From IMG/VR virus record IMGVR_UViG_3300045988_038566: DNA of 47,547 bases, one strand, 5' to 3'. A program made the translations under genes and the position numbers. Positions 12,258 to 45,470 of the stretch are shown here, piece by piece; within the stretch, counting starts at the first letter, position 1, and each line of letters opens with the position of its first letter. Below the pieces are notes generated by a model. It ran no database searches and was not told where the DNA came from. It saw only the letters and a list, made by a program, of their open reading frames with translations. Source of the stretch: a virus.

Positions 12258-12752
12258 ATGTACGAACAGAAGTTATGGCAAGACCATGTAACAGAGTTTG
12301 AAGACCGCTACACGGAAAGCAGAAATGATGATGGAACTATCACGCACACACCAGTTGAGGGGGAAATAATTCAGCAGGGAACACCGCAGAACGCAACCAA
12401 CTTCAACCACATGGAAAACGGTATTTCCAATGCAACAGAAACGGCAGCACTTATGGCGCTTTCTACAATCCACCACCAGCAGGCAATAGCTGACTTGCAG
12501 GGAGAAACAGCAACGGTGACTTTGAAGAATACGCAGCAGTACCCGTTCAACAATTCTACACAGTCAGTTGCGCTGAAGACTGAAAGAAACCACATGGACT
12601 ACACCGTGGAAACAGAAATAGTGGACTACACGGGCGGTTTTCCGGGCGACATTGTTATTACAGAAAAGTTGCTGAATGGTTTTAAGATGGCACACACAGG
12701 AAGCGCAAAAAGCGTGACCGTAAAAGTTTATGTGAAAGGTGGGTTTTACTAA
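12258..12752 (+). CDS. Putative tail fibre / fibre-associated protein
   Basis: 164 aa. The N-terminal pattern W.DHV......Y....DGT.......G...Q.GTP.NA.N.N..E.GI is common in Firmicutes prophage fibre proteins (recalled from memory, not searched). Confidence 0.5.
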   Translation: MYEQKLWQDHVTEFEDRYTESRNDDGTITHTPVEGEIIQQGTPQNATNFNHMENGISNATETAALMALSTIHHQQAIADLQGETATVTLKNTQQYPFNNSTQSVALKTERNHMDYTVETEIVDYTGGFPGDIVITEKLLNGFKMAHTGSAKSVTVKVYVKGGFY

Positions 12753-12934
12753 TGGCAGCAGGTGTGATTATTAAGACAGAGGAACGCAGACAGCACGAAG
12801 AAGCGGTTATGCGTTCTTTTGGCGTGCAGGGTAGCGGGACAGCAGCACAGAGAGAAGCAGCGGAGGTTATCGCAGCCAGAAGCAGCGAGGTAGTAAGAAA
12901 CCAGAATGGAGGTAGAAAGTATTATGGCTACTAA
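12752..12934 (+). CDS. Small hypothetical protein (60 aa)
   Basis: ATG overlaps the upstream TAA (TAATG). It overlaps the next gene by 11 nt. Weak call. Confidence 0.3.
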   Translation: MAAGVIIKTEERRQHEEAVMRSFGVQGSGTAAQREAAEVIAARSSEVVRNQNGGRKYYGY

Positions 12935-13277
12935 TAAAATCAATGTAGTTGAAAAAACACCGGGCACACATATTGAATATGCACTGTCTGGCGGTAAAAA
13001 AATCACGTTCGGTGATGATGAATTAACAATCAATCTTGCCAGCCGTGAAAGAGATTTTGAAGTGTCACTGGACATTTGCATTGACGAAGAAGACGGCGTG
13101 GTGATTGGCACCGGAGGACGTGCGCAGAAGTACGCTGCGCAGATTGTTATTCCTGCCAGACGCTATGATGTTATCGAAGACGGAGAGGACGAAAACGGAG
13201 AACCGAAAGAAATTCCAGTGCCTATCCCATTCGATATGTCGCTTTGCACACTTATTCTTTGGGGATTGGAGGTATAA
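12924..13277 (+). CDS. Hypothetical protein immediately upstream of DGR target 1
   Basis: 117 aa from ATG 12924 (GGAGG at 12908-12912). The alternative start is ATG 12906. Confidence 0.5.
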   Translation: MATNKINVVEKTPGTHIEYALSGGKKITFGDDELTINLASRERDFEVSLDICIDEEDGVVIGTGGRAQKYAAQIVIPARRYDVIEDGEDENGEPKEIPVPIPFDMSLCTLILWGLEV

Positions 13278-13283
13278 AGAATT

Positions 13284-14336
13284 ATGTCTAATTTTGATGA
13301 TTTAGCAATGGCGGTTGCTTCTTTTGGGGGCAACAATGCAGTAAAGTTTGATGATTTGGGTATGCCGTCAATTATGGTGGGTATTCCAAAAATGAAGTAT
13401 TCCGACATTATCACCGGAGGAACACAGGAAACATTGCCGTGGTGGATTGTGGACGGAGTAGAAAAAGAAGTTATCTGGGTATCGAAGTATATTAACGTCG
13501 TGGTCAACGACCGTGCATACTCACTGCCAATGAAAGACCCTAAAGCATACATTGACTTTGACACAGCACTTGCAGTATGCCGCAGAAAGGGTGAGGGCTG
13601 GCACCTTAACCAGAACGGCGTATTTGCCGCAATCAACCTTTGGTGTATGAAAAACGGCTTCACGCCCCGTGGAAACACAAACTGGGACAGAAGCTATGAA
13701 AAGGGATATGAAAAGGGTATCAACACATACATTGACGGTTCACACGGCGGCGGCAGAACCGCAACTGGTTCTGGTCCGGTAACTTGGAACCATGACGGCA
13801 GCCCGGCTGGAATTGCCGACCTTTGCGGCAACTGCTGGGAGTGGGTATCTGGTATGCGCATTGTAGATGGTGAAATTCAGATTATCCCATACGGAAACGC
13901 CATGAAGTCTGACTGCAACATGGGTGCAAAAAGTACAGAGTGGAAAGCAATTAAGCCGGACGGCACACTTGTAGCACCGGGAACGGTTGGAACATTAAAG
14001 ATTGACAGAACCAGTGCGAGTGACGCAACACTGCGTATCAACACAAGTGTCACAACACAGACGACGGACAGCAACGACACAAGCGTACCATTCAAAGATA
14101 CAAAGGCAGTAAGCGGCGTAACCGTTCCGCAGATTTTGATTGCGTCCGGTTTATATCCAGACGCAGGACAGACAACGCCGGGCAGATTTTGGGCAAGAAA
14201 CAACGGCGAAAGACTGCCTATCCGGGGTTCGAGTTTCGGCAACACTTCCTATGGTGGTGCTGGTGCGCTGAGCTTGAACTTCCCTCGTTCTTACGTCATC
14301 AACAATGTGTCGTTCCGTTCCGCTTTTGTGGAATAA
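13284..14336 (+). CDS. DGR variable protein 1 (C-type-lectin / FGE-sulfatase-fold receptor-binding protein, tail-fibre locus)
   Basis: 350 aa. It has the core motifs RRKGEGWHL and DLCGNCWEWVSG. The C-terminal 37 codons are the VR matching the downstream TR. Confidence 0.9.
   Translation: MSNFDDLAMAVASFGGNNAVKFDDLGMPSIMVGIPKMKYSDIITGGTQETLPWWIVDGVEKEVIWVSKYINVVVNDRAYSLPMKDPKAYIDFDTALAVCRRKGEGWHLNQNGVFAAINLWCMKNGFTPRGNTNWDRSYEKGYEKGINTYIDGSHGGGRTATGSGPVTWNHDGSPAGIADLCGNCWEWVSGMRIVDGEIQIIPYGNAMKSDCNMGAKSTEWKAIKPDGTLVAPGTVGTLKIDRTSASDATLRINTSVTTQTTDSNDTSVPFKDTKAVSGVTVPQILIASGLYPDAGQTTPGRFWARNNGERLPIRGSSFGNTSYGGAGALSLNFPRSYVINNVSFRSAFVE
14215..14325 (+). repeat. DGR variable repeat VR1 (111 nt)
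   Basis: Identical to TR 14936-15046 except at 8 positions, all of which are adenines in TR. Confidence 0.92.
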
Positions 14337-14362: not shown

Positions 14363-14384
14363 GGGGCTTACGGCAGTAAGCCCC
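14363..14384 (+). other. GC-rich hairpin with 4-nt loop downstream of VR1 (DGR target-recognition type; could also terminate)
   Basis: GGGGCTTAC (14363-14371), loop GGCA, GTAAGCCCC (14376-14384). The 9-bp stem is perfect. Confidence 0.55.
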
Positions 14385-14419: not shown

Positions 14420-14878
14420 ATGCCAGAAAATACAGCAGAACAACTGCCGCAACTGGATAACGTGCGGGACAATGCGACGCAAGAAGATTTCAAAATGAAA
14501 AATAAAGTATATGAAATGCTTTTGTATGCGTACCCAGCATTAGAACAATTTCCAAAGAGCGACAGAAAACTTGCGGACCATATACGGGAAGCAATACTGC
14601 AAGTGTTTGAATTAGTGATACACCTTGAAAACAAACACTACAAGAAAACGACGTTGGGAGAACTTGACGACCAGTTGGACGTCCTGCGGCACCTTGTAAG
14701 GCTTGCGGCAGACCAGCAGTTGCACCCAGACAAGAAACCATGCTTGCCAATACGCAAATATGAAATATTGTCAAGAAAGATAAATGAAATAGGGTGCATG
14801 ATTGGCGGGTATTATAAATCACTGAACGGCAGCACGGCTGGAAACGGCGGTGCTGCAAATAAAAGCAATGGTAAATAG
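14420..14878 (+). CDS. avd: DGR accessory variability determinant (Avd, four-helix-bundle protein)
   Basis: 152 aa. ...VYEMLLYAYPALEQFPKSDRKLADHIREAIL...LDVLRHLVRLAADQQL...YEILSRKINEIGCMIGGYYKS fits the Avd pattern. It lies between the target and TR. RBS AAGGTGG upstream; the alternative start is ATG 14495. Confidence 0.85.
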   Translation: MPENTAEQLPQLDNVRDNATQEDFKMKNKVYEMLLYAYPALEQFPKSDRKLADHIREAILQVFELVIHLENKHYKKTTLGELDDQLDVLRHLVRLAADQQLHPDKKPCLPIRKYEILSRKINEIGCMIGGYYKSLNGSTAGNGGAANKSNGK

Positions 14879-14898: not shown

Positions 14899-14935
14899 AT
14901 ATTATGGGAATAAGCCGTTAATAGAGGACTTGCCG

Positions 14936-15046
14936 TGCCTATCCGGGGTTCGAGTTTCAACAACACTTCCAATGGTGGTGCTGGTGCGCTGAACTTGAAC
15001 AACCCTCGTTCTAACGTCAACAACAATGTGTCGTTCCGTTCCGCTT
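14936..15046 (+). repeat. DGR template repeat (TR, 111 nt)
   Basis: It is the invariant donor copy matching VR1 and VR2. It has 23 adenines and, in the target frame, 10 AAY codons. It is non-coding in context and sits between avd and the RT. Confidence 0.92.
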
Positions 15047-15307
15047 CACCCCATTTCTGCCAGCAGTCGTGTTCACAAGTGGGCACGTCCAGTGCGTATG
15101 GGTTAAAGGGGTTTATTTCCATTCCAAAGGCTGCCAGCCGGGAGCCGTAGGAAAAAGATTGAATTGCCGTAAAGATAGTTAGTAAGCCACAGGCTGAAAG
15201 TCAGAGCCGGAAACACTGGCACTGAATGTATATATCACGTTTGGGCTGCGGAAGAACCGCAGTTTGATTTGTACGGCGAAATTTTAACAACAGGAGGGAA
15301 AAGGGAA
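15047..15307 (+). ncRNA. TR-to-RT spacer of the DGR RNA (putative structured priming region)
   Basis: 261 nt of non-coding sequence between TR and the RT start. It contains the hairpin CTGCGG/CCGCAG (15246-15262). The assignment is by analogy to the BPP-1 DGR RNA spacer. Confidence 0.4.
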
Positions 15308-16522
15308 TTGCACAAAATCAAAAACATTTTCCCTATAATTTATGACTTTGAAAATCTCTTCAATGCGTATAAAGCCGGGATAAAGTGCAAGAGGTACAGA
15401 CCAGATGTGATGGCGTACACGGATAAGCTGGAAGAAAACTTGATTGAGTTACAGAATGAATTTATCTGGCAGACCTACACCGTGGGGCGCTACAACATAT
15501 TTTATGTTTACGAACCGAAAAAGCGCATGATTATGTCATTGCAATTCAAAGACCGGGTGGCACAGCACGCTATATATAGCCAGCTGAACCCGTATTTTGA
15601 AAAGCAGTTCATACATGACAGCTACGCTTGCAGAGTAGGCAAGGGAACACACAAAGCAGTCAACCGCCTGCATAACTGGTTGAAGCAGACAGACCGAAAG
15701 CCGCAGCGTTTCTATTATTTGAAACTGGATATTGCAAAGTATTTTTACCGGATAGACCATGAAGTATTGATGGACATTTTGCGGAAAAAGATTGCTGATA
15801 AAGATTTGTTGCACGTCTTGTCAGTGATTATAAACTGCGAAGACACAAACTTTGGTCTGCCACTGGGCGCAGATATTGGCGACGTGGCGTTTGATGAATT
15901 GCTGGGAGAAGTTGGGCTGCCTATTGGCAATTTGACTTCACAAATGTTTGCAAATTTGTATTTGAATGAACTTGACCAGTTCTGCAAACACAAACTGCAC
16001 CTGCGTTATTACATACGTTACATGGACGACATTATAATTTTGCACCCAGATAAAAAGTATCTGGAAAAGATAAAGAACAAAATTGCGGACTTTCTGGGAA
16101 AAGAACTGCGGTTGCAGCTTAACAAGAAAACCTGCATAAGACCAACCAGCATGGGTATTGAGTTTGTAGGGTTCCGCATTTGGTCAACACACATAAAATT
16201 GCGCAAGAAGACGGCAAAGAAGCTGAAACGACGATTGAAATATATGTTTGCAGCATATCACGCCGGAGAGATTGACAAAGATACACTGGATAGGTCCGTT
16301 GCTTCATACCGGGGCATATTACAGCATTTCAACAGCTACGGTATGCGCCAGAGCTTAAACGAACTGTACTTGCAGGAAATGGGCAAGCCATATCCAGAAC
16401 CGGAGAAGAAGCCAGACAGCAAATGCGGTCTATTCTGCGGATATTACGGCAGCGCTGATGATTATATCAAGCAGCCAGAAGACAAGGAGGTGACGGACAG
16501 TGGAAGCAATGCAGACGCTTAA
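15308..16522 (+). CDS. DGR reverse transcriptase
   Basis: 404 aa from TTG 15308 (AGGAGGG at 15292-15298); the ORF is open from 15269. Motifs seen: EPKKRMIMSLQFKDRVAQHA, LDIAKYFYRIDH, the DGR-type PIGNLTSQMFANLYL (SQ signature), and the catalytic YIRYMDDIIIL. Confidence 0.92.
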   Translation: MHKIKNIFPIIYDFENLFNAYKAGIKCKRYRPDVMAYTDKLEENLIELQNEFIWQTYTVGRYNIFYVYEPKKRMIMSLQFKDRVAQHAIYSQLNPYFEKQFIHDSYACRVGKGTHKAVNRLHNWLKQTDRKPQRFYYLKLDIAKYFYRIDHEVLMDILRKKIADKDLLHVLSVIINCEDTNFGLPLGADIGDVAFDELLGEVGLPIGNLTSQMFANLYLNELDQFCKHKLHLRYYIRYMDDIIILHPDKKYLEKIKNKIADFLGKELRLQLNKKTCIRPTSMGIEFVGFRIWSTHIKLRKKTAKKLKRRLKYMFAAYHAGEIDKDTLDRSVASYRGILQHFNSYGMRQSLNELYLQEMGKPYPEPEKKPDSKCGLFCGYYGSADDYIKQPEDKEVTDSGSNADA

Positions 16523-20472: not shown

Positions 20473-20530
20473 TCGGCAAAATACACAAATATACTTCCGT
20501 AAGATTGTATAAAATGTATACTTCCGTAAG
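20448..20530. promoter_or_regulatory. Operator cluster: three copies of the TATACTTCCGTAAG core (20448-20465 inverted, 20490-20503, 20517-20530)
   Basis: Direct reading. The cluster lies in the divergent region between the leftward operon and the RHH gene. A rightward extended -10 (TGATATACT, 20542-20550) follows. Confidence 0.7.
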
Positions 20531-20820: not shown

Positions 20821-21128
20821 TTATAGAGCCAGTGAAGAGGATAGCAGAAAATTATCTGGAAACCAGAAACAAGGTGATTGAAAATTGCTGGTGCATGATA
20901 GTTGGGAACGACACGCCAAAGCAGGAAGACGGCTGGCTTGAAGTAATGAACGGCAGGCAAACAGAAAACGGGATTGCTAATATATACAACTTTATGTATA
21001 AAGGGAAAAGAGCGCTGACGCTGGAAGAAGTACAAGGGTGCGGGGCAAGCAGGTATTTTATCAGCAGCGGGGAATATACACTGGAAGACTACATGAGAGC
21101 GGTGCAAAATAATTCTGAAAAACTGTGA
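20805..21128 (+). CDS. Hypothetical protein (107 aa)
   Basis: GTG 20805 lies 7 nt after GGAGG (20793-20797) and overlaps the RHH gene's end. Confidence 0.5.
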   Translation: MAERMIIEPVKRIAENYLETRNKVIENCWCMIVGNDTPKQEDGWLEVMNGRQTENGIANIYNFMYKGKRALTLEEVQGCGASRYFISSGEYTLEDYMRAVQNNSEKL

Positions 21129-21136
21129 AAAAACTA

Positions 21137-21165
21137 TTGACTTTATACTTCCGTAAGTATATAAT
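21137..21165 (+). promoter_or_regulatory. Promoter cassette TTGACT-N17-TATAAT with the operator TATACTTCCGTAAGTATA (21144-21161)
   Basis: -35 at 21137-21142, 17-nt spacer, -10 at 21160-21165, followed by AAAGATAGTTAAAG. Confidence 0.75.
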
Positions 21166-21223
21166 AAAGATAGTTAAAGAAGCAACAATACTTTGACGAA
21201 TACGGCAAGGGAAAGGAGAAAAC

Positions 21224-21489: not shown

Positions 21490-22017
21490 ATGGAAACTGA
21501 AATGGAAAGCAGAATTGCAGACCCGTTCAGCTGGGACGGACACGAAGCAGAAACACTGCTTGTTTGCGAAAGTGGAAGCGGAAGAGCAAAAGAACTGGTG
21601 GCAGTTGTGACAGTAAAGACAGAGGGAAGACCAGAAGCATTTTACAGAGTGAGAGAAGCAGGAGAAAAAGACGTTGACTTTGAAAGCTGGCTTGAAGCGG
21701 TAGACTATTACAACTGCATTGGAGTAGAGAGCCACCCGGCAACACCGGACACCGGAATTGCAAAAACGGAGTTGCAGGACGAAGACTGGAAAACAGCAAT
21801 AGCACAGAAAAAGCCAACAATCCCGGCAGGCGCAGTGGTAAAGATAACTGGAACACTGCAAAATATGTATGGGGACTTTGTGAAAGTGGAGTACAACGGC
21901 GTAAAGTACACGGTTGAGCCACGCAAACTGGATATGCCAAAGACGCTGGAAGAACAGAAACAGGCAATCAGAAAAGCGACACTGGCAGCAGGCGCAAAGA
22001 TAATTGAAAATAATTAA
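21490..22017 (+). CDS. Hypothetical protein (175 aa)
   Basis: ATG 21490 lies 8 nt after GGAGG. The leader TTCAATACGGAGG is shared with the 22120 gene. Confidence 0.55.
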   Translation: METEMESRIADPFSWDGHEAETLLVCESGSGRAKELVAVVTVKTEGRPEAFYRVREAGEKDVDFESWLEAVDYYNCIGVESHPATPDTGIAKTELQDEDWKTAIAQKKPTIPAGAVVKITGTLQNMYGDFVKVEYNGVKYTVEPRKLDMPKTLEEQKQAIRKATLAAGAKIIENN

Positions 22018-22024
22018 AAACCTA

Positions 22025-22053
22025 TTGACAATATACTTACGGAAGTATATAAT
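22025..22053 (+). promoter_or_regulatory. Promoter cassette TTGACA-N17-TATAAT with an inverted operator (22032-22049)
   Basis: -35 at 22025-22030, -10 at 22048-22053, followed by AAGGACAGTTAAAG. Confidence 0.75.
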
Positions 22054-22119
22054 AAGGACAGTTAAAGCAATAGTGCTTAACACAAATAGTCAATATGGTT
22101 CAATACGGAGGGAATAGCA

Positions 22120-22425: not shown

Positions 22426-22477
22426 GTACTAACTTAACACAGCCCACGGGTAGTGTCACATTAGTACAACACTACCC
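22426..22477. other. Candidate attP region (interleaved inverted repeats at the integrase 3' end)
   Basis: GTACTAA (22426-22432) pairs with TTAGTAC (22461-22467). GGGTAGTGT (22448-22456) pairs with ACACTACCC (22469-22477). The call rests on position only. Confidence 0.25.
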
Positions 22478-23869
22478 AAAAACAACACCCGTGATATTCT
22501 GGTCATTATCAATTCTAATTTCTTTAATGGCAGAACGCCAAAGCGTGCGTTTTTCTTCACGGGTCAAATTCTCATAAATTGTTTTGAAATCATTATCAAG
22601 GAGCCTGCGGACGGCTGCAAAGTCTGGCGGCGGTTCAATGCTGGGTTCCGGTATCTGTTTAAGTGCAGCAGTATATATTTGATAGTCCCTTTTGTAGTCC
22701 TCAATGTCTATTAAGTCATTCACATATAATTCTTTTAACTTGGTCAGCTTCCGTTTCAGTGCTGCTTTATCAGTGCGGGCAACGGACGCTTTCTTTTTGG
22801 CTGCGGCAACTTCCCATTCCAGCTGGCAGCGTTCCAGTTCCTCTGCCAGATGTTCAAACAGCCACTTTTCCACGACGTCTTCACGGGCTGAATGATTATG
22901 AGAGCAGCGCCCACGCTGGAAATGCTGGTTGCAGCGGTAATAATAATAATCACTTGACTTGTACCCGACCAGTTTATGCCCACATTCAGCGCAAGTCAGA
23001 ATGGAAGTGAAAATATATACCTTGCCAGACGGAACAGAACGTGCGTTGCGTTCCAGAAGCGCTTGCACACGGTCAAACTGCTGCTTGCTGATGATTGCCG
23101 GGCAGAAATGGTCATTGAACCTGCCGCCCCGGTCATACACCCCAGTATACAGCTTTTCTTTCAGCATACGCCGGAAAGTGGCGTCACACCAGTTCACGCC
23201 GTAGGTTTCCCGGATATAGCGGACAGTAGCACGCTGGGAAATCGAAGTTTCAAAGTAGTTGAAAGCGTCTTGCACAATGGCTGCGTCTTCTGGCACAACT
23301 TCCAGCCGCTTTTCCTCATTAACACGGAAGCCAAAGGGAGCAGAGCCGGAAACAACGGTGCCGTGGGCAATCTTACTGTCAAATACAACGTCTATTCGTT
23401 CCCCGTCAATGTCCGCTTCATTCTGGGCAATGGACAGCTTCACGTTAATATACAGACGCCCGTTTGCGGTTGTGGTGTCATATTCTTCATCAGTGGTTTT
23501 CCAGTCGCAGTTGTGCGCTTCCAGAACTTCCATGATTTTATAATAATCTGCCACGGAACGAAACCAGCGGTCAAGGCGGCAGAAAAGCAGAATATTCACT
23601 TCATCACGCTTCACACTGTCCATCATGCGTTGAAAGTCGGTTCTTTTATGAATGTTCTTTCTGGCGGTCTTGGCAGCGTCAATGTAAATTCCAACAATGA
23701 CCCAGCCACGTTCCCTTGCGTATGCTTCCAGTCGTTCTTGCTGGGCTTCCAGTGACAGACCTTTTATTTTCTGTTCTTCCCCGGAAACCCTTATATATAA
23801 AGCAACCCGGACAAGTTCCGGGCTTAAATCAATCTTTTTCACTATTGTATCACCTGCATTTCCTTTCAT
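22472..23869 (-). CDS. Large serine recombinase (phage integrase)
   Basis: 465 aa from ATG 23869 (ORF open to 23962). Resolvase-type N-domain (VALYIRVSGEEQ...), recombinase domain, zinc ribbon (CAECGHKL...YYYRCN) and a C-terminal coiled coil. Confidence 0.88.
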   Translation of the reverse strand: MKGNAGDTIVKKIDLSPELVRVALYIRVSGEEQKIKGLSLEAQQERLEAYARERGWVIVGIYIDAAKTARKNIHKRTDFQRMMDSVKRDEVNILLFCRLDRWFRSVADYYKIMEVLEAHNCDWKTTDEEYDTTTANGRLYINVKLSIAQNEADIDGERIDVVFDSKIAHGTVVSGSAPFGFRVNEEKRLEVVPEDAAIVQDAFNYFETSISQRATVRYIRETYGVNWCDATFRRMLKEKLYTGVYDRGGRFNDHFCPAIISKQQFDRVQALLERNARSVPSGKVYIFTSILTCAECGHKLVGYKSSDYYYYRCNQHFQRGRCSHNHSAREDVVEKWLFEHLAEELERCQLEWEVAAAKKKASVARTDKAALKRKLTKLKELYVNDLIDIEDYKRDYQIYTAALKQIPEPSIEPPPDFAAVRRLLDNDFKTIYENLTREEKRTLWRSAIKEIRIDNDQNITGVVFG

Positions 23870-23982
23870 TTCCCGCCTGCTGGTGATATAATCAAAATTG
23901 CAGACGGTATTGTTGTATCTGGTATGACATATCTTTGCACGCCCCGGAAGTGTTCCCAGCACGACCGGGGCATTTTGTTTTA

Positions 23983-25058: not shown

Positions 25059-25523
25059 TCACCCGGCGTCTGTCCCGGAAACACTGCCAGTGTCAACGGG
25101 CGGGCACTGGGCTTCTAAATCTTCTGGATTGTCTGGAACTAACAATGCAGGGTCCGCAGTAACAGCAGCAACAAGCCTGCGTTTGAAAAATTCCACGGCA
25201 GTTCTTCTAATTTCTGGGTCAAGTTCAAAGTACGTCTTTATGATTTCCAATTCAAGACCCGTGGCACCTTTAGACTTCACGAAGTCGTCAAGGCTGAATG
25301 TGTCCGGCTGTATATACATTTCACCAGAACCAGTGCGCAACCATTCTTCATTCACATTATAAAGAAGACAGATTGCCTTGATTGTCTGGTCAGTGACGGT
25401 TGAGCCGTCCCGTTCCATGTAGCTGACGCCAGTTTGCTTCATTCCCAGACTTACTGCAAATTCAGTCTGGCTGATGTGCAAAACATCTTTTCTAAAATGC
25501 TTCACACGTTCATTGATAGTCAT
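25059..25523 (-). CDS. XRE/cI-type HTH repressor
   Basis: 154 aa. HTH motif ISQTEFAVSLGMKQTGVSYMERDGSTVTDQTIKAICLLYNVNEEWL. It is divergent from the early rightward operon across an operator-containing region. Confidence 0.8.
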   Translation of the reverse strand: MTINERVKHFRKDVLHISQTEFAVSLGMKQTGVSYMERDGSTVTDQTIKAICLLYNVNEEWLRTGSGEMYIQPDTFSLDDFVKSKGATGLELEIIKTYFELDPEIRRTAVEFFKRRLVAAVTADPALLVPDNPEDLEAQCPPVDTGSVSGTDAG

Positions 25524-25556: not shown

Positions 25557-25655
25557 ATAGCAGTAACCGCTAAAAAAGTCAATATTAAAAACGGAAAAAG
25601 GGTTGACAAATAGCAGTAACCGCTATAATATATAGTTAAACAAGCAGTAACCGCT
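25557..25655. promoter_or_regulatory. Three operators AGCAGTAACCGCT (pseudo-palindrome AGCnGTnACnGCT) at 25559-25571, 25612-25624 and 25643-25655
   Basis: Direct reading. (A)ATAGCAGTAACCGCT occurs twice and CAAGCAGTAACCGCT once. The middle site overlaps the rightward promoter. Confidence 0.7.
25603..25631 (+). promoter_or_regulatory. Rightward early promoter (TTGACA ... TATAAT/TAATAT) overlapped by an operator
   Basis: TTGACA at 25603-25608. TATAAT at 25624-25629 gives a 15-nt spacer. TAATAT at 25626-25631 gives a 17-nt spacer. Confidence 0.6.
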
Positions 25656-25711
25656 ACAACAGAAGCGTTTACCGCTTGCGAAACCACACAGCATGAAAGG
25701 AGGAACAGACA

Positions 25712-25891
25712 ATGACAGAAGTTAAAAACATGGAAACCATGATTGCAACTGAAAACCAGCAGGAAGCAACAGAGGTCATGGCTTTTCTGGGGGAACTTGA
25801 ACCGCAGGAAAAGAAAGACTTTCTGGTGTTCATGCAGGGCATAAGATTTGCAAAGGGCATGGCACAGAAAATTGCGCCGCAGTCCGTATAA
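25712..25891 (+). CDS. Small hypothetical protein (59 aa), first gene of the rightward early operon
   Basis: ATG 25712 follows AAGGAGGAA. It is below the ORF-track cut-off. No HTH is evident. Confidence 0.5.
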   Translation: MTEVKNMETMIATENQQEATEVMAFLGELEPQEKKDFLVFMQGIRFAKGMAQKIAPQSV

Positions 25892-25905
25892 AGGAGGGCG
25901 CAGGA

Positions 25906-26043
25906 ATGGAAGTACAAGGAACATTCAATGCCCAGCGCTTTTTTGAAACGCTGGCGCTGATTATATCCCAGCGGGAGGGCGTGAAAGTCACCGTGACAGT
26001 GACACAGCCAGAGCCGGAGAAGAAAGAAAAGCAGTCAGCGTGA
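25906..26043 (+). CDS. Small hypothetical protein (45 aa)
   Basis: ATG 25906 follows AAGGAGGG. Sequence MEVQGTFNAQRFFETLALIISQREGVKVTVTVTQPEP... Confidence 0.45.
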   Translation: MEVQGTFNAQRFFETLALIISQREGVKVTVTVTQPEPEKKEKQSA

Positions 26044-26063: not shown

Positions 26064-26086
26064 CAAAGGTTTTTCAAAAGTCAATA
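26064..26086 (+). repeat. 23-nt direct repeat, left copy, flanking DGR target 2 (CAAAGGTTTTTCAAAAGTCAATA)
   Basis: Matches 27237-27259 at 22 of 23 positions. Confidence 0.85.
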
Positions 26087-26151: not shown

Positions 26152-27159
26152 ATGAAAGAATTTGTGAAGAAAAAAGCAGTCATTGTCATGGACAGTGCAG
26201 GACTGCCAAACTACATGACCATGTTTTATATGGAGCCGGGGACCTATGAGCCGGAGGACGTGCCGGAACTGTTCAAAATCAGAAACAAGATTGTTCCTGC
26301 GGTTCTGGTGTCGCAGTTCACCAACACCATGATTAAGGGCGTCCCGGCGTCCTTACCTTACCAGCAGCCAAAACACACTATCAGTTATGATGAAGCGGCG
26401 GCAGCCTGCGGAAGAAAAGGCAAGGGCTGGCACCTTATGACAAATACAGAGTTTGTCTATCTACTGCATGAAGCAGAGGAACTGGGGCACACAATCGGCG
26501 GTAATACAAACTACGGCAGCAACTCAAAGAATGAGCAGGAAAGCGGCGTGAGATACGACAGCGCCGGACGCACGCTGACCGGGTGCGACCCCCTCACATG
26601 GTCCCATGACGGAACAGCAGACGGCGTGTTTGGTCTTTGCGGTAATTTCTGGGAATGGGTCACGGGCTTGCGTCTGCACAAAGGCGTTGTGGAATACACG
26701 CCGAACAACGACGCAGCAGTTGAGGGCTACACAGAGAAGCCAGACTGGACCGTTGCAGAGGTGAACGGCAGACCGTTGAAGCTGTACGGCAACAGTGCTG
26801 GTGATGTGGTAATGTCCGTTGCGGAAGAAATCGAAGAAAACTGGGAGGGCTGCCACATGGCAGACTTGCAGCTGGAAGAACTGGACGAAGTGCCGGAAAT
26901 TGCGTACAAGCTGGGAATTGTACCGCATGACTGGAAGCATGAAACAGCTGGACTTTGGGCAGACAGCGAACTTGAAGAAAGCGTGCCTATCCGGGGTTCG
27001 GGTTTCTACTACACTTCCAATGGTGGTGCTGGTGCGCTGATCTTGGACTACCCTCGTTCTCACGTCCTCAGCAATGTGTCGTTCCGTTCCGCTTTGTTCT
27101 TGGAAGACTGGGAACTGGTAACTGAATTACTGAAAGCGGGTGCGACAGCGCACGCATAA
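26152..27159 (+). CDS. DGR variable protein 2 (remote paralogue of target 1, C-type-lectin/FGE fold)
   Basis: 335 aa. Motifs GRKGKGWHL, GLCGNFWEWVTG and VPIRGSGFYYTSNGGAGAL... It is collinear with target 1. The VR lies 22 codons before the stop. Confidence 0.9.
   Translation: MKEFVKKKAVIVMDSAGLPNYMTMFYMEPGTYEPEDVPELFKIRNKIVPAVLVSQFTNTMIKGVPASLPYQQPKHTISYDEAAAACGRKGKGWHLMTNTEFVYLLHEAEELGHTIGGNTNYGSNSKNEQESGVRYDSAGRTLTGCDPLTWSHDGTADGVFGLCGNFWEWVTGLRLHKGVVEYTPNNDAAVEGYTEKPDWTVAEVNGRPLKLYGNSAGDVVMSVAEEIEENWEGCHMADLQLEELDEVPEIAYKLGIVPHDWKHETAGLWADSELEESVPIRGSGFYYTSNGGAGALILDYPRSHVLSNVSFRSALFLEDWELVTELLKAGATAHA
26984..27094 (+). repeat. DGR variable repeat VR2 (111 nt)
   Basis: Identical to TR except at 10 positions, all TR adenines. 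The homology extends 2 nt further 5' (from 26982). Confidence 0.92.
27101..27117 (+). promoter_or_regulatory. Candidate IMH-like element downstream of VR2 (TGGAAGACTGGGAACTG)
   Basis: Shares TGGAA and an exact 11-mer ACTGGGAACTG with the VR1 flank. Not present after TR. Confidence 0.4.
27140..27153 (+). other. Short hairpin with 4-nt loop downstream of VR2
   Basis: GTGCG, loop ACAG, CGCAC. The stem is only 5 bp, weaker than the VR1 hairpin. Confidence 0.3.
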
Positions 27160-27521
27160 AGAACAGATGTTCTGATATTTGACCCATGAAAAAGGGCAAG
27201 CAAAAAGCCTTTAAAGATGTGCCGGAAACACAAAATCAAAGGCTTTTCAAAAGTCAATATGTAATAATTCAATACACGTTTATTATACCATATTGGCGGC
27301 TACAAGTCAAACATTTTAGAGGGCGAAAGCCTTTGAAAATAGCGGGTTTCAAACCTGTTAAACGGGCTTGTATGGGGTATTAACATTCCTACGAAATATA
27401 TAAATATATATACGCTGTATGGATAATGAACAGGAGGGATAAGAGGGAGAAGAAGAACCCCACCCCACTTCTGGTATACCCTTATACGCTTAAAACGGTA
27501 TAGGACAGAAAAGGAAGTGCA
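27160..27521. other. Long non-coding region upstream of Rep: candidate replication origin
   Basis: 362 nt with no convincing ORF. It has three AAAGSCTTT motifs (about 27204, 27238, 27324), an AT tract ATATATAAATATATATA (about 27396-27412) and several short inverted repeats. Confidence 0.3.
27237..27259 (+). repeat. 23-nt direct repeat, right copy (CAAAGGCTTTTCAAAAGTCAATA)
   Basis: Matches 26064-26086 at 22 of 23 positions. Confidence 0.85.
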
Positions 27522-28460
27522 GTGGTGTTCATAAGGGAGAAGAAGATAGACTGCGCAGAGTATAGAGAAGTGGATATAATACCACGAACAGAAGCAGCAG
27601 AGCAGGCAAGCAGAGGAAAGAGGGGTAAGAAAAGAAAGGTTAATGCCCCAAAGCAAAAGGACTTGAACGACAAGAACGCTAAACGCTATCTGGTACAGTT
27701 GGGAAATGGCAACTTCCACATAGGGGACCTGCATACAAGTTGCACATATAGCGCAGAGAACCTGCCGGGAACGGTAGAGGAAGCAGAAAACATTGTGACA
27801 AACTACCTGCGGAGAATAGCATACCGCAGAAAGAAGCTGGGGTTAGAACCCCTTAAATACATACTGGTAACAGAATACAAGTACAGCAAGGATGGTCAGT
27901 GTCTTAAAAGAATACATCACCATATCATTATGAACGGCGGTTTAGACCGTGACGACGTGGAATTGATGTGGACGAAAGACCGTATCAACTGGAAGAAGAC
28001 AGACGACCCAGAGTATAGAGCCAGTATAAAGCAGCTGGGCTGGGTTAATGCAGACCGCCTGCAAATGAATGAGAACGGCATAGAGGGGCTTTGCAAGTAT
28101 ATTGTGAAAGACCCGCAGGGAAAGAAACGCTATTCAAGCAGCAGGAACCTTGACCGCCCGGAAACAACCAGAGAGGACGGAGGGGAAAAGCGGCAGCGTG
28201 ACCAGAACCACTGGAAGTATAGCCGCAATCTGTCAGACCCAACGGAAAAGTGCAATGATTTCAAGTACAGCAAACGCAAGGTAGAGCAGCTGGCGAAGTC
28301 ACCAGACGGCGGGCTGAAAGAATTTAAAAAGATTTACAGTGATTATGACATTGTTTCATGCGAACCCGTGTTTTATGAACAAACCGGGTGGCATATTTAC
28401 TTGAAAATGTGGAAAAAGAAGCCCAAAAAGGGCAGAAAGGAGGATAAAAAGTGCAGTTAG
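27522..28460 (+). CDS. HUH-superfamily rolling-circle replication initiator (Rep)
   Basis: 312 aa, GTG start after AAAGGAAG. Three HUH-type motifs appear in order: LHTSCTYS (motif 1-like), RIHHHIIMNG (HUH) and GLCKYIVKD (YxxK catalytic Tyr). Confidence 0.65.
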   Translation: MVFIREKKIDCAEYREVDIIPRTEAAEQASRGKRGKKRKVNAPKQKDLNDKNAKRYLVQLGNGNFHIGDLHTSCTYSAENLPGTVEEAENIVTNYLRRIAYRRKKLGLEPLKYILVTEYKYSKDGQCLKRIHHHIIMNGGLDRDDVELMWTKDRINWKKTDDPEYRASIKQLGWVNADRLQMNENGIEGLCKYIVKDPQGKKRYSSSRNLDRPETTREDGGEKRQRDQNHWKYSRNLSDPTEKCNDFKYSKRKVEQLAKSPDGGLKEFKKIYSDYDIVSCEPVFYEQTGWHIYLKMWKKKPKKGRKEDKKCS

Positions 28461-33742: not shown

Positions 33743-33833
33743 AATACTTACGGAAGTATACAAAATGCACAAATATACTTCCGTAAGATTGTGTAAAATG
33801 TCGATTGCTTTTATACTTCCGTAAGTATATAAT
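33743..33833. promoter_or_regulatory. Second operator cluster plus promoter cassette (operators 33743-33760 inverted, 33774-33787, 33812-33829; TTGCTT-N17-TATAAT 33805-33833)
   Basis: Same architecture as 20448-20530. About 35 nt (CACAAATATACTTCCGTAAGATTGTNTAAAATGT) are near-identical to 20485-20518. Confidence 0.7.
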
Positions 33834-33884
33834 AAAGACAGTCAAAGGAACAACAACACAACATAGAAAACGGAGGTATAAGCA

Positions 33885-34166: not shown

Positions 34167-34239
34167 GCACGGGTGGCGCAATGGATAGCACAGCAGCCCC
34201 CGAAGCTGCCGGGTGCGGGTTCAAGTCCCGTCCCGTGCA
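34167..34239 (+). tRNA. tRNA, anticodon CCG (Arg) by manual folding; non-canonical C at position 33
   Basis: 73 nt. Acceptor GCACGGG/CCCGTGC plus discriminator A. D-arm GCGC-AATGGATA-GCAC (one C-A mismatch). Anticodon stem GCAGC/GCTGC with loop CCCCGAA (anticodon at 34200-34202). T-arm GCGGG-TTCAAGT-CCCGT. No encoded CCA. Confidence 0.75.
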
Positions 34240-34289
34240 TTACTGGGAAAAGAAACTATAAACATACCAGATACAAGGAGGAATACCCC

Positions 34290-35051
34290 ATGAAAACATT
34301 ATCAATCATTAACTTAAAAGGTGGAGTGGCAAAGACCATTTCCAGCGTTAATATGGCACACATTCTGGCAGCAGTACACGGCTGCAAAGTCCTGTTAATC
34401 GACAACGACAAGCAGGGGAACGCCAGCAAGATTTTGAACCGCCACAGTTACGACCATAAGGGAACCGCAGAGGTTATGACCCAGCGTGGCATTGACCCGG
34501 CAGCAGTTATCCAGCACACCGATTATGACGGCTTGGACATTATCACAGCAAACATGAACCTGCTGACAGCCAATTTGGAAGTCATGCTGGACCAGTCCAG
34601 ACCGCAACAGACACGCTTCAAAAAGTTTCTGGACGGATTGCAGCAGGAATATGACTACTGCATTATTGACAACGCCCCAGACATTAACATTTCGACCATA
34701 AATGCGCTGGTAGCTTCGCAAGACGTCATGGTGCCTATAACCATTGATGATTTTGCAATAGACGGTCTGGCAGAACTGAAAGAACAGATTGACAACACCC
34801 GTGAGGACCTAAACCCGCAGTTACGTTTCTGTGGCTGCTTTGTCACACAGTACGACAGAACAAACGAAGCAGACACGCAGGGAGAAGAGTTCTTGAAGAC
34901 GCTTGAATATCCGGTGTTTGATACGCATATCAGAAAGACACCGAAAATGAAACCCAGCACATTTGAAAGATTGCCAATCATTTTATATTCCCCACACTGC
35001 GGCGCAAGTGCCGACTATAAAGCGTTAGTGGAAGAATGGTTGAGAATGTGA
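34290..35051 (+). CDS. parA: ParA/Soj-type Walker ATPase
   Basis: 253 aa from ATG 34290. Deviant Walker A motif NLKGGVAKTISS, and IDNDKQGN and IIDNAPD motifs. The longer track ORF start at 34173 would run through the tRNA. Confidence 0.85.
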   Translation: MKTLSIINLKGGVAKTISSVNMAHILAAVHGCKVLLIDNDKQGNASKILNRHSYDHKGTAEVMTQRGIDPAAVIQHTDYDGLDIITANMNLLTANLEVMLDQSRPQQTRFKKFLDGLQQEYDYCIIDNAPDINISTINALVASQDVMVPITIDDFAIDGLAELKEQIDNTREDLNPQLRFCGCFVTQYDRTNEADTQGEEFLKTLEYPVFDTHIRKTPKMKPSTFERLPIILYSPHCGASADYKALVEEWLRM

Positions 35052-35064
35052 CCAATTCGGACAC
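35045..35064. repeat. 20-nt exact repeat AATGTGACCAATTCGGACAC, copy 1 (parS-like imperfect palindrome)
   Basis: Identical to 39626-39645. It lies between parA (overlapping its stop) and the ParB-like gene. The core is GTGnCCnAnTnGGnCAC. Confidence 0.85.
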
Positions 35065-35081
35065 GTTAGGAGGGAAAGACA

Positions 35082-36428
35082 ATGGCAGGAGCAGCAAAGA
35101 AATTCAACTTGACAGAGTTATTAAACCAGCGGTCAAAGGAAGCTGGGGAGCAGCAGAAAACAGAACAGCAGCAGGCGGCAGCAGGCACAGAGGTTGTCAC
35201 GTCCGAAGAGGGCGTGAGCAGCACTGCCGATATTTACGACCTTATACCGTCAAAGGGCAATTTTTACAGCGTGGAAGACGTGCAAGACTTAAAACAGTCT
35301 ATTGAACTTCTGGGAGTGTTACAACCACTTCTGGTGACTGATGAAGAGGAAGACGGCAAGCGCCGTATCATTGCAGGGCACAGAAGACGGCTGGCGGTCA
35401 TGCAGCTGGTGGACGAGGGAAAAGAGCGTTTCAGACGGGTTCCAATCTTAATCAAGCCGAAGAAAAACGCAATTCTGGACAGACTGGCACTGATTATGGC
35501 AAACCGTTTCCGTGAGAAGACAGACTGGGAACGCATGACAGAAGCGCTGGAAACAGAAAAGCTGGTACTGGAATTAAAAGAAAGCATGAACATTCCGGGC
35601 AGAACCCGTGATTTACTGGCAGAGATTATAGAAACGTCCCCGGCGCAGGTAGGAAGATACAAGGCAATCTATAACAATATCATTCCAGAACTGATGGCAG
35701 AATTTAAGGCAAACAGAATTGTTGTATCTGTCATTTATGAAGCGTCCGGGCTGCCGGAAGATTACCAGAAGCAGGCGGCAGAGGTATTCCGGGAAAATGA
35801 AGTGCTGACATTATCAGACATTAAGCAGATAAAGAAGAACTGGGAAGCGTCGCAGCAGATACCGGGACAGATGGACGAAGCCACAGAGGGAGCAGGAGAA
35901 GCCACAGAGGGCACAGAGGACGCAACCGGGCAGCAGTCAGAATACGTTGACCCACAGCCGGAGCAGATAACGTCACTTTGTTACAGCTGCACACACTATG
36001 AGGACTGCCACGACAAGACAGCAACCGTGACCAGCTGCAATGCTTATGAGAACCGCAGAGAAGCCCAGAAGACGGACGAAGAGAGATACAACGAAGAGCA
36101 GGCAGCTATTGACCGGGAAACACAAAAGAAACTGCGTGAAATGCAGCAGGAAGAGAAAATGCAGCACTTGCCGTCTGATGATAGAAAAGAAAAGACAATC
36201 AGAGTATCACCGGAGAAAATGAAAGCCGTTGCGGTTGACCGCACAAGACCATACATGATTTTGAAAAATGATGATTACAGAGAGGGCGACACAGTAAAGC
36301 TGATTGAGTTTGCAGATGGCAGAGCAACCGGAAACACGGCAGACATGAAAATTATCTGCATGGACGACGACACGACCAGCAGCGCACTTGAAGAGGGCTA
36401 TTGTGTAATAGCGTTGCAGGAGGTGTAG
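35082..36428 (+). CDS. ParB/Srx N-domain protein fused to a C-terminal DUF3850/ASCH-like PUA domain
   Basis: 448 aa. ParB box LGVLQPLLVT...RIIAGHRRRLA. The C-terminus ...YMILKNDDYREGDTVKLIEFADGRATGNTADMKIICMDD...GYCVIAL resembles DUF3850. Confidence 0.7.
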   Translation: MAGAAKKFNLTELLNQRSKEAGEQQKTEQQQAAAGTEVVTSEEGVSSTADIYDLIPSKGNFYSVEDVQDLKQSIELLGVLQPLLVTDEEEDGKRRIIAGHRRRLAVMQLVDEGKERFRRVPILIKPKKNAILDRLALIMANRFREKTDWERMTEALETEKLVLELKESMNIPGRTRDLLAEIIETSPAQVGRYKAIYNNIIPELMAEFKANRIVVSVIYEASGLPEDYQKQAAEVFRENEVLTLSDIKQIKKNWEASQQIPGQMDEATEGAGEATEGTEDATGQQSEYVDPQPEQITSLCYSCTHYEDCHDKTATVTSCNAYENRREAQKTDEERYNEEQAAIDRETQKKLREMQQEEKMQHLPSDDRKEKTIRVSPEKMKAVAVDRTRPYMILKNDDYREGDTVKLIEFADGRATGNTADMKIICMDDDTTSSALEEGYCVIALQEV

Positions 36429-45454: not shown

Positions 45455-45470
45455 GGAGGATAAAACAATC

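Follow-up and report, generated by a model that had tools for sequence, protein, structure and literature searches.

Within a 47,547-nt stretch of viral DNA (IMG/VR record IMGVR_UViG_3300045988_038566), here called the window, a temperate gut phage carries one diversity-generating retroelement (DGR), a mutagenic reverse-transcriptase system that acts on two related binding-protein genes. The first of them, T1, lies in the tail module next to the DGR, and the second, T2, lies far away in the repressor-proximal early region. This arrangement raises two questions: whether T2 is a true target of the distant DGR, and what a hypervariable protein would do when it is encoded at such a position.

One template repeat matches two variable repeats

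The features of the DGR and of the early region are collected in Table 1. The reverse transcriptase (RT) possesses both signatures of the DGR clade, [ILV]GxxxSQ and YxDD, in the form of the motif IGNLTSQ at residue 219 and a YMDD box at residue 251; its coordinates are those of a mechanically listed ORF, and the true start may be further downstream. An accessory protein of the type found beside TR and RT in DGRs (Avd or HRDC) is present as Avd. T1 is encoded in the tail module, as Mtd-type receptor-binding proteins are, and its variable repeat VR1 (14215-14325) ends 10 nt before the T1 stop codon. Two small proteins of the tail module are encoded at 12258-12752 and 12906-13277. When Rfam was searched at gathering thresholds, no known RNA family was found near TR, VR2 or the T2-Rep spacer, and the only hit was a tRNA.

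Table 1 Features of the DGR, of its two targets and of the early region in the window
Feature	Position	Strand	Remarks
T1, adjacent DGR target, tail module	13284..14336	+	350 aa; phrog_2889, 6e-123
Hairpin after VR1, GGGGCTTAC-GGCA-GTAAGCCCC	14363..14384	+	37 nt past VR1 end; z = -3.5
Avd accessory protein	14420..14878	+	PF22296 bAvd, 8.1e-22
TR, single non-coding template repeat between Avd and RT	14934..15046	+
DGR reverse transcriptase	15269..16522	+	RVT_1, 4.9e-23
HTH (cI-type) repressor, divergently transcribed	25059..25523	-	PF01381, 2.3e-7
Operator cluster	25559..25676	.	3 exact copies of AGCAGTAACCGCT (25559, 25612, 25643) and a degenerate inverted copy (25664-25676)
Rightward sigma-70-like early promoter	25603..25631	+	TTGACA then TATAAT or TAATAT; an operator copy overlaps
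Small ORFs s1 (25712-25891) and s2 (25906-26043), between promoter and T2	25712..26043	+
22-nt repeat AAAGGYTTTTCAAAAGTCAATA, upstream copy, bracketing the T2 slot	26065..26086	+	0 copies expected by chance
T2, second DGR target, TaqVP-like FGE-type C-type-lectin-fold variable protein	26152..27159	+	335 aa
VR2, variable repeat	26982..27094	+	113 nt; 10 mismatches to TR, all adenines
VR-specific 3' flank, motif ACTGGGAACTG..TA..ACTG	27095..27132	+	Coding in T2 (..LEDWELVTELL..)
Hairpin after VR2, 4-nt loop, GTGCG-ACAG-CGCAC	27138..27155	+	~43 nt past VR2 end
22-nt repeat AAAGGYTTTTCAAAAGTCAATA, downstream copy, between T2 and Rep	27238..27259	+	Conserved in most relatives
Leftward promoter, TTGACT-17-TGnTATAAT, aimed into T2 3' end	27282..27310	-	Conserved; 11/12 matches
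Replication initiation protein (Rep), conserved right-hand neighbour of T2	27522..28460	+	PF23343; phrog_3584, 2e-82

An ungapped three-way comparison showed that TR (14936-15046), VR1 and VR2 (26984-27094) are in register across 111 nt, which bears out the second variable repeat proposed in the initial annotation. The homology between VR2 and TR begins 2 nt before this block (26982 = 14934), giving 113 homologous nt (26982-27094 and 14934-15046), and on the 5' side the similarity breaks off sharply at the TR boundary. VR2 and TR differ at 27001, 27007, 27010, 27041, 27046, 27049, 27061, 27067, 27068 and 27071, exactly the offsets listed before (18, 24, 27, 58, 63, 66, 78, 84, 85 and 88); TR has an adenine at 10/10 of these positions, and no mismatch was found elsewhere. 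The 8 mismatches between VR1 and TR are also all at TR adenines (8/8). TR contains 23 A in 111 nt, and the chance of every mismatch hitting an A is, by the hypergeometric distribution, 2.2e-8 (VR2) and 1.1e-6 (VR1). The two variable repeats differ from each other at 11 positions, the number originally counted, at A sites, and agree with TR elsewhere. They are read in the same frame, in which all 23 TR adenines occupy codon position 1 or 2 (8 AAC and 2 AAT codons), and VR2 sits at the 3' end of its ORF, 65 nt before the T2 stop codon. From the end of TR to the start of VR2 we measured 11,936 nt, matching the earlier figure of about 11.9 kb.

T2 is a full-length paralogue of T1

The full-length paralogy of the two targets suggested earlier was confirmed: BLASTP of T2 against T1 gave E 3e-51 and 36% identity, and the two proteins align end to end; a conserved N-terminal region, the same length and the same architecture are common to both. 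T2 belongs with T1 to phrog_2889 (2.4e-69 for T2). Its sequence matched that of TaqVP (PDB 5vf4) in a phmmer search (E 1.5e-25), and its structure model matched 5vf4 over the full length (Foldseek E 9.5e-13, TM 0.53). This model is only moderately confident (pLDDT 63.5), and its VR part, with pLDDT below 50, is too uncertain for reading the binding surface. At E <= 0.01 no Pfam family, PF03781 (FGE-sulfatase) included, was found for T1 or T2, and the family assignment is based on PHROG, the PDB sequence search and Foldseek; a precomputed PF03781 match exists for one T2 orthologue (P0095).

Neither a signal peptide nor a TM segment was found in T2, nor an N-terminal trimerisation or fibre-attachment domain, the whole protein being aligned to the single-domain TaqVP. 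After the VR, T2 ends in a short helix, and such a C-terminal helix, which reaches a 118-aa helical tail in Lagaffe, is typical of T2-type proteins and missing from T1. Judging from substitution rates, the T2 scaffold is under purifying selection, with a dN/dS of about 0.18 outside the VR over a dS of 0.6-0.8; inside the VR, dN/dS is 1 or more. The T2 ORF is intact in nearly all orthologues, and its RBS is strong.

Both variable repeats are diversified among relatives

Independent and active diversification of both VRs had been claimed from one genome, and the population data of relatives support it more strongly. When each VR2 was set against the TR of the same genome, in 13 paired viral contigs and in the phages Lagaffe and Saumur, 9-16 differences were counted, ~98% of them at adenines; all mismatches of the Lagaffe VR2 are at A (11/11), and so are those in distant relatives with T2 4 kb downstream of Rep (15/15 and 7/7). 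Lineage-specific non-A changes of TR are reproduced in both VRs in ~15 related genomes. Among 16 near-identical orthologues, 22/23 of the VR2 columns that correspond to TR adenines are polymorphic, with 3-4 alleles. Relatives hold 3.7 alleles per TR-adenine site in VR2 versus 1.04 in the nearly invariant TR, and 40 distinct VR2 haplotypes versus 12 of TR. VR1 and VR2 are equally hypervariable.

On these sequence comparisons, T2 is a genuine, active second target in trans of the single DGR of this phage: the adenine-only differences, the hypervariable columns, the purifying selection and the relatives all argue against a decaying copy or a chimera. The idea of one TR feeding two paralogous targets holds. 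An assembly chimera, which had been named as a possible refutation, is ruled out, since the gene and its synteny recur in ~60 viral contigs, in Saumur, a phage derived from an isolate, and in the genome of Hominiventricola filiformis.

T2 is still present in contig 028530, a relative from which TR and RT are gone. It is therefore not strictly tied to an active DGR.

T2 occupies a conserved slot between the immunity region and Rep

The gene order agrees with the position first described, in a repressor-proximal rightward operon before Rep: the repressor on the minus strand, promoter and operators, two tiny ORFs, T2 and Rep. No separate plus-strand promoter was found between 25631 and Rep, and no terminator-like site on the plus strand between the promoter at 25603 and Rep. 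T2 would be transcribed from the promoter at 25603, early with the operon. A reading of T2 as a self-contained 'moron' is unsupported, T2 having no plus-strand promoter or terminator of its own between 25631 and Rep. The leftward promoter downstream of T2 is conserved in the related phages L022 and L219 and could give rise to an antisense or countertranscript RNA.

Comparison with related genomes, which had been proposed as a check, showed that the slot is conserved. In ~60 viral contigs the order Int(-)-cI(-)-s1/s2-T2-Rep persists even where cI has been swapped, and s2 is kept upstream of T2 or Rep in relatives. The same placement of T2, after the immunity region and ahead of Rep, is seen in phage Saumur and in a Hominiventricola prophage, and a second target is found in the early/replication module of Lagaffe, Saumur and Lelie. 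T2 of the distant relative L218 lies downstream of Rep, with closely spaced genes of the same strand around it. T2 was found beside tail genes, the location of Mtd-type receptor-binding proteins, in no lineage examined. The 22-nt repeat AAAGGYTTTTCAAAAGTCAATA also brackets a DUF6273 cargo in the sister phage L219 and is absent from L218, where T2 is downstream of Rep; the repeat therefore marks the slot and not the T2 gene.

The sister phage has an unrelated DGR, and T2's slot is occupied there by a target of that DGR, a DUF6273 protein of unrelated fold. This protein lacks the C-terminal (Ig-like) half of its structural partner target, and its N-terminal domain resembles a small protein of a nucleotide-metabolism module. 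A search of viral contigs for further DUF6273 variants of the slot returned the same single contig only. The DUF6273 target of an unrelated DGR in the same slot, observed in one genome, appears to be new. Given that a hypervariable protein is kept at this place whichever DGR is present, TaqVP-like or DUF6273, with the same 22-nt repeat around both, we tentatively consider, as a rather doubtful extension, that the position between immunity region and Rep might be a dedicated exchangeable slot for an early DGR-diversified binder, with an antibody-like role distinct from receptor binding. Such a role, if true, could be for example adaptive counter-defence, host takeover or exclusion. Looser parallels to the DUF6273 variant were seen in Lelie and in phage nd4.

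Candidate cis elements are shared by the two variable repeats

When the flanks were aligned in 13 relatives, the motif ACTGGGAACTG..TA..ACTG was found to be common to the 3' flanks of VR1 and VR2 and absent from TR. On the T1 side the homologous flank lies past the T1 stop codon and is still conserved, and because this conservation persists beyond the coding sequence, a cis role of the VR-specific flank is suggested. By analogy with IMH and IMH*, the motif probably marks a VR as recipient. The hairpin after VR2 matches the one after VR1 in position. Its stem is remodelled but kept in relatives (GGGCGT-GAGA-ACGCCC in the Saumur-like form), and the VR1 hairpin shows a compensatory A-T to G-C change in relatives; the latter may also, or simply, be the T1 terminator. 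The 3' end common to TR and both VRs is A-free and GC-rich.

Proposed mechanism and role of T2

In the mechanism that we propose, the Avd-TR-RT cassette in the tail/lysis region would produce adenine-mutagenised cDNA from TR RNA, and this cDNA would replace one of the two VRs: VR1, which precedes TR by 0.6 kb, or VR2, at a distance of 11.9 kb. Dual targeting would operate through cis signals common to both VRs, namely the A-free GC-rich 3' end, the ACTGGGAACTG..TA..ACTG flank and the hairpin with a 4-nt loop ~40 nt downstream of the VR. Each homing event could rewrite up to 12 ligand-face codons of a single-domain TaqVP-like C-type-lectin protein. T2 would be made early after induction or infection and would act as a soluble cytoplasmic binder, not a spare tail-fibre tip, with a role of its own in host takeover, counter-defence or exclusion. 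The early non-virion reading follows from the place of T2, which heads the early operon that runs rightward under repressor control and directly precedes Rep, and from this place a non-virion function seems indicated. Gene position alone neither fixes the timing of T2 nor excludes its incorporation into virions. As a whole, an active trans target that encodes an early non-virion binding protein is the best explanation we can offer, and we hold it to be an even call.

To our knowledge, the one role that experiments have established for a C-type-lectin variable protein of a phage is receptor binding, as in Mtd. The strongest rival is that T2 is a second interchangeable receptor-binding (adhesin) virion subunit, made early and, like T1, incorporated into the baseplate or fibre, which would provide two independently diversified specificities per particle or phage population. 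This is plausible, as T2 is paralogous to T1 over its full length and shares with it the single-domain architecture and a conserved N-terminal segment, phrog_2889 homologues of other phages are either encoded in tail modules or carry the annotation 'antireceptor', VR1 and VR2 are equally hypervariable, and the same role was suggested for Lagaffe_CP by the authors of PMC11792537. However, all lineages examined have T2 in the early/replication module and never beside tail genes, and it has a C-terminal extension that T1 lacks; moreover, the Ig-like C-terminal half present in the structural target is missing from the slot protein of the sister phage, and TaqVP-type proteins are monomeric and have none of the trimerising domains of Mtd (PMC6328139). 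We therefore favour the early non-virion binder, the even call above, over the second receptor-binding protein, which we regard as credible and somewhat less probable.

It is very improbable that T2 is a functionless duplicate serving as a passive cDNA sink, to which cDNA homes through retained cis signals. Contig 028530, which keeps T2 after losing TR and RT, would fit this possibility, but the dN/dS result argues against a decaying duplicate, the ORF is intact in nearly all orthologues behind a strong RBS, and T2 persists among phages with T2 protein identities as low as 52-63%, as well as in Lagaffe. Least probable of all, and ruled out for gene conversion between the paralogues, is that ordinary recombination instead of retrohoming keeps VR2 like TR and VR1: recombination among three ~111-nt repeats of one genome is conceivable, but the differences are directional and limited to TR adenines in both VRs of ~15 genomes, TR retains its adenines, VR1 and VR2 differ at A sites and match TR elsewhere, and the similarity has a sharp 5' end at the TR boundary.

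Tropism switching through the tail-fibre tip is, as far as we know, the only phage DGR function that has been shown experimentally. If T2 is a non-virion binder, DGRs would diversify intracellular factors of phage-host conflict besides receptor recognition. Phage DGR targets outside the structural module form a second class, seen in several gut phage groups, and the present lineage is a tractable one: the targets are clean paralogues, both are diversified in nature, and the second lies in a defined early operon. Cultured lysogens exist in E. clostridioformis YL32 with Saumur (OMM12 model) and in Hominiventricola filiformis CLA-AA-H276.

Comparison with known DGRs

The initial annotation had regarded the arrangement as unusual, which is its weak point, since a structural and a non-structural target of one phage DGR have already been published (Shimadzu, Lagaffe_CP, Quimbyvirus, Wu et al. 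2018). Related gut phages with this two-target architecture have been described before, and the present phage is a further example, with the layout of the Lagaffe/Shimadzu-like two-target DGRs of gut Clostridia myophages. According to Wu et al. 2018 (PMC5758913), DGRs associated with phages frequently pair an adjacent with a non-adjacent target inside the same prophage, and structural plus non-structural targets were reported for Lagaffe_CP, Lelie and CP11 (PMC11792537).

Shimadzu, a temperate Lagaffe-like Roseburia myophage of gut Lachnospiraceae, likewise has one TR, with VR1 in a tail gene just before RT and VR2 in a distant gene, and both VRs were shown by experiment to be modified, ~2% of virion reads having DGR-type changes at the two sites (Cornuault et al., bioRxiv 10.1101/575076). 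It differs from the present phage in host and sequence and was not among the matches in the phage collection searched; the paper contains no analysis of the genomic slot or fold of the VR2 gene. Faecalibacterium phage Lagaffe/Lagaffe_CP shares T1-Avd-TR-RT in the tail/lysis region, and population hypervariation at both its VRs has been published (PMC11792537; PMC5883640). It also has a paralogous FGE/Mtd-like second target (gp40) at the start of the early region, but gp40 is 31% identical to T2, carries the 118-aa helical tail after the VR, and is followed by exonuclease and recombination genes, not directly by Rep. Saumur, like the present phage, has one TR, VR1 in a tail gene and VR2 in a paralogous non-adjacent gene; its T1 and T2 proteins are WAK79546.1 and WAK79604.1.

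In Quimbyvirus (Benler et al. 2021, PMC8008677), one DGR also serves structural and non-structural C-type-lectin targets, a precedent for a non-structural second target, for which a role in phage-host conflict was proposed. Unlike the present phage, it is a ~75 kb Bacteroides phage with a frameshifted RT, and the gene of its second target, read from the opposite strand, belongs to a methyltransferase/nuclease island instead of a cI-controlled early operon beside Rep. Treponema denticola and Legionella likewise have several distant VRs per TR, but these cellular remote targets are mostly surface lipoproteins up to >100 kb away (PMC5758913), whereas both targets here lie within a 47-kb phage.

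Bordetella phage BPP-1 (Mtd, Avd, TR, Brt) likewise has adenine-specific mutagenic retrohoming, with TR as donor and, as recipient, a C-terminal VR within a C-type-lectin fold, together with Avd, a 3' element that is GC-rich and free of A, and a hairpin downstream, and its Avd, TR and Brt are described, by a citation within PMC5758913, as able to act in trans. It has one adjacent target, however, and Mtd, located at the tail-fibre tip, has additional N-terminal domains and is obligately trimeric. The closest solved structure to T2 is TaqVP of a Thermus aquaticus prophage (5vf4; PMC6328139), which like T2 is a single globular FGE-type C-type-lectin domain with an N-terminal wrap, and which is monomeric. 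TaqVP is ~26% identical to T2 and is the sole, adjacent target of its DGR, whereas T2 adds the C-terminal helix.

A second DGR target in the window

Repeat finding and alignment showed that one sequence of about 111 nt is present three times in the window, as a template repeat (TR) and as the variable repeats VR1 and VR2 of two DGR target genes, T1 and T2. The ten positions at which the initial annotation had VR2 depart from TR were recovered exactly, and all ten are TR adenines (P = 2e-8 that ten random mismatches all hit A, with 23 A per 111 nt of TR). VR1 differs from TR at eight positions (8/8 adenines). Between VR1 and VR2 there are 11 differing sites, as had been stated. The TR adenines all fall in codon positions 1 or 2, with eight AAC and two AAT codons, and VR1 and VR2 are read in one common frame. 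The DGR is otherwise canonical, with a bAvd protein and a reverse transcriptase (RT) with IGNLTSQ as its DGR motif and with a YMDD box. This alignment confirms that the second target is real.

Coordinates of features in the window and in related loci (L-numbers)
Feature	Position	Remark
T1	13284-14336 (+)	350 aa
VR1	14215-14325	end of tail-module gene T1
TR	14934-15046	non-coding, between Avd (accessory protein) and RT
Promoter-like TATACTTCCGTAAGTATA elements	21124-21191, 22012-22079, 33792-33859	3 copies
Further pair	20477-20517 / 33761-33801	noted with the TATACTTCCGTAAGTATA elements
Serine integrase	22472-23962	
22-nt direct repeat AAAGGYTTTTCAAAAGTCAATA	26065-26086 and 27238-27259	bracketing T2
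T2	26152-27159 (+)	335 aa
VR2	26982-27094	near end of T2
Leftward promoter	27282-27310 (-)	T2-Rep spacer
Rep	27522-28460 (+)	
tRNA-Arg (CCG)	34167-34239	
ParA/ParB-like genes	34173-36428	ParA-like ORF 34173-35051
Sister-phage DGR	L120:4928-8529	target, 574-aa DUF6273 protein
Sister-phage TR	L120:5407-5485	
Sister-phage slot protein	L219:3778-4593	271-aa DUF6273 protein, s2-Rep slot
Slot-protein VR	L219:4478-4556	
Contigs ending near T2 3' end	L173-L176, L185, L191, L196, L197, L199, L201, L203, L205	

An exact 99-nt direct repeat at both window ends (1-99 = 47449-47547), detected by repeat finding, shows that this is a complete phage genome of ~47.4 kb, circularly assembled. Besides structural genes for a contractile tail it has ParA/ParB-like genes and encodes a serine integrase, a Rep protein and a repressor of the HTH type. 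Clostridium phage Saumur (ON453901), a prophage induced from Enterocloster clostridioformis YL32 (PMC10197239), is collinear with it and ~69% identical at the nucleotide level. The nearest host genome with a T2 orthologue (80% identity) is that of Hominiventricola filiformis (family Lachnospiraceae). Integrated prophage copies exist, yet the combination of integrase, partition genes and Rep would also suit plasmid-like maintenance. A tRNA-Arg gene lies just before the ParA-like ORF and overlaps its mechanically called start. Promoter-like elements (TTGAC..TATAAT) with the palindrome TATACTTCCGTAAGTATA, one of them upstream of the tRNA and ParA/ParB-like genes, look like a second repressor/operator circuit, distinct from the cI operators.

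Diversification of VR2 in related phages

Related genomes provided much stronger evidence for VR2 rewriting than the window genome alone. Saumur has the same TR/VR1/VR2 triplet, with VR1 mismatches at adenines in 14 of 14 cases and VR2 mismatches at 14 adenines plus one T>G. Pairing loci of the same viral contig yielded 13 further phages with all three repeats, in which VR2 departs from the TR of its own genome at 9-16 positions, ~98% of them adenines. Several non-adenine positions differ between lineage TRs, and both VRs match their own TR there in every genome; judged from these alignments, such tracking is concerted evolution, explicable only by ongoing TR-to-VR transfer. An alignment of 16 T2 orthologues with 94-97% overall identity showed three or four alleles at each of 22 polymorphic columns out of the 23 templated by adenine, and the variable non-A columns are few and biallelic. 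Over all fetched loci, the number of distinct sequences was 40 for VR2, 44 for VR1 and only 12 for TR, with 3.7, 3.6 and 1.04 mean alleles per A site, respectively. T2 is under purifying selection outside the VR (dN/dS ~0.18 at dS 0.6-0.8), dN/dS inside it is 1 or more, and 8,624 distinct T2 protein sequences fall into a single cluster at 90% identity. In Roseburia phage Shimadzu, a relative, DGR-type changes occur at both VRs in ~2% of virion reads (bioRxiv 10.1101/575076). The adenine-directed variation across relatives, the dN/dS values and the Shimadzu reads together mark T2 as an active target, which supports the earlier interpretation.

In contig IMGVR_UViG_3300045988_028530 (loci L110 and L044), TR and RT are lost and Avd is truncated, yet the ORFs of T1 and T2 are both intact, so that the VRs of this natural DGR-loss variant are frozen; a truncated RT was also seen in another related locus (L113). 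Many metagenomic contigs stop 100-730 nt upstream of Rep, inside or just past the T2 3' end, consistent with assembly breakage at the hypervariable VR2.

Candidate cis signals beside the VRs

TR, VR1 and VR2 have in common an A-free, GC-rich 3' end (..ATGTGTCGTTCCGTTCCGCTT), directly 3' of which both VRs carry a motif around ACTGGGAACTG..TA..ACTG that is absent from TR, and a hairpin with a 4-nt loop lies ~40 nt downstream of each VR. The flank after T1 is non-coding yet kept across relatives, the flank after VR2 codes for the tail ..LEDWELVTELL.., and the hairpin stems show compensatory substitutions in relatives. On the model of phage BPP-1, with its IMH and hairpin, the flank motif and hairpins probably mark recipient sequences, and such elements would let a single cDNA pool serve both VR1 and VR2.

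Position of T2 in the early module

The divergent control region upstream of T2 combines a minus-strand HTH repressor with three exact copies of AGCAGTAACCGCT, one overlapping the rightward promoter at 25603. Downstream of this promoter come two tiny ORFs (s1 and s2) and then T2, which has a strong RBS and is separated from Rep by a spacer of 362 nt, and no terminator-like site was found on the + strand across the promoter-to-Rep stretch. The order Int(-)-cI(-)-s1/s2-T2-Rep is repeated in ~60 viral contigs, including ones with the repressor swapped for a 34%-identical type. More distant relatives, with Rep 70-78% identical, have a T2 homologue 2.5-5 kb downstream of Rep, among packed same-strand genes, and its mismatches to its own TR are at adenines only. 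In Lagaffe the early region begins with the second target. The second target is therefore always in the early/replication module, and its exact position is variable.

In Saumur two genes, one PAPS-reductase-like and the other annotated as "released upon host infection", stand between the immunity region and T2 (45258-46406), which makes the stretch upstream of T2 a variable accessory-gene region. A near-consensus leftward promoter (TTGACT-17-TGnTATAAT), directed into the T2 3' end and VR2, is kept in a related locus (L022) and, with different cargo, in L219 of the sister phage described below. This putative promoter could drive antisense or countertranscript RNA on Rep and/or T2, and the antisense transcript would include, in complementary form, the 22-nt repeat that precedes both T2 and Rep.

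The sister phage (contig IMGVR_UViG_3300010270_000007) shares its backbone with the window (Rep 88%, integrase 81%, s1 87%, s2 80% and endolysin 80% identical) and has an unrelated DGR in the tail/lysis region, with an RT 33% identical and the order Avd-like-TR-RT-target. The VR of its DUF6273 slot protein differs from the phage's own TR at adenines in 16 of 16 mismatches. This protein is without the Ig-like C-terminal half of its 574-aa structural partner, and its N-terminal domain is similar to a small protein of a Listeria phage nucleotide-metabolism module. The small DUF6273 target of Lelie, too, has non-structural genes around it and lies 2.6 kb upstream of a Rep that belongs to the same PHROG. 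Occupation of the same slot by a DUF6273 protein, a single-contig case, suggests that a diversified early-module protein is selected for, beyond tolerated duplication. The same 22-nt repeat stands on both sides of the slot in sister phage and window. A longer intergenic element that is itself repeated has this 22-nt repeat as its core; the downstream copy is kept in most relatives, and the upstream copy goes with the window-type immunity module. The repeat may act in module exchange, as a recombination linker, or in regulation.

Possible function of T2

T2 aligns end to end with T1 (36% identity, E 3e-51), both belong to phrog_2889, a PHROG without assigned function, and no signal peptide or membrane segment was found in either. 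The closest solved structure to T2 is TaqVP (5vf4; sequence match E 1.5e-25), the monomeric variable protein of a DGR in a Thermus prophage, which consists of a single C-type-lectin domain of the FGE type (PMC6328139). The moderate AlphaFold model of T2 (pLDDT 63.5) matched TaqVP by Foldseek with E 9.5e-13 and TM 0.53. Past the VR, T2 orthologues, and not T1, continue into a conserved C-terminal helix; in Lagaffe gp40 a helical tail of 118 residues takes its place.

The conserved early-module placement, the C-terminal extension peculiar to T2 and the way the DUF6273 slot protein is built lead us to favour T2 as an early-expressed, soluble, non-virion binding protein, which on these sequence features it may well be; such an idea was raised for Quimbyvirus (PMC8008677). 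That T2 is a second virion receptor-binding protein, as suggested for Lagaffe_CP (PMC11792537) and in line with the identical architecture of T1 and T2, is a tentative, less probable alternative. T2 as a relic, chimera or gene-conversion product was rejected on the evidence of related genomes; a duplicate without function is poorly supported and very improbable, and upkeep of the VR2 similarity by gene conversion, likewise poorly supported, is still less probable.

Comparison with known two-target DGRs

The novelty of the two-target DGR is modest. Neither a fixed slot adjoining Rep nor the filling of that slot by an unrelated target family upon DGR swap was found described in the literature examined on two-target DGRs. 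An adjacent target plus a non-adjacent one within the same prophage is a frequent arrangement among phage-associated DGRs (Wu et al. 2018, PMC5758913), and specific two-target cases like the window have been published for Shimadzu, Lagaffe_CP, Lelie, CP11 and Quimbyvirus, so that T2 adds to an already known layout.
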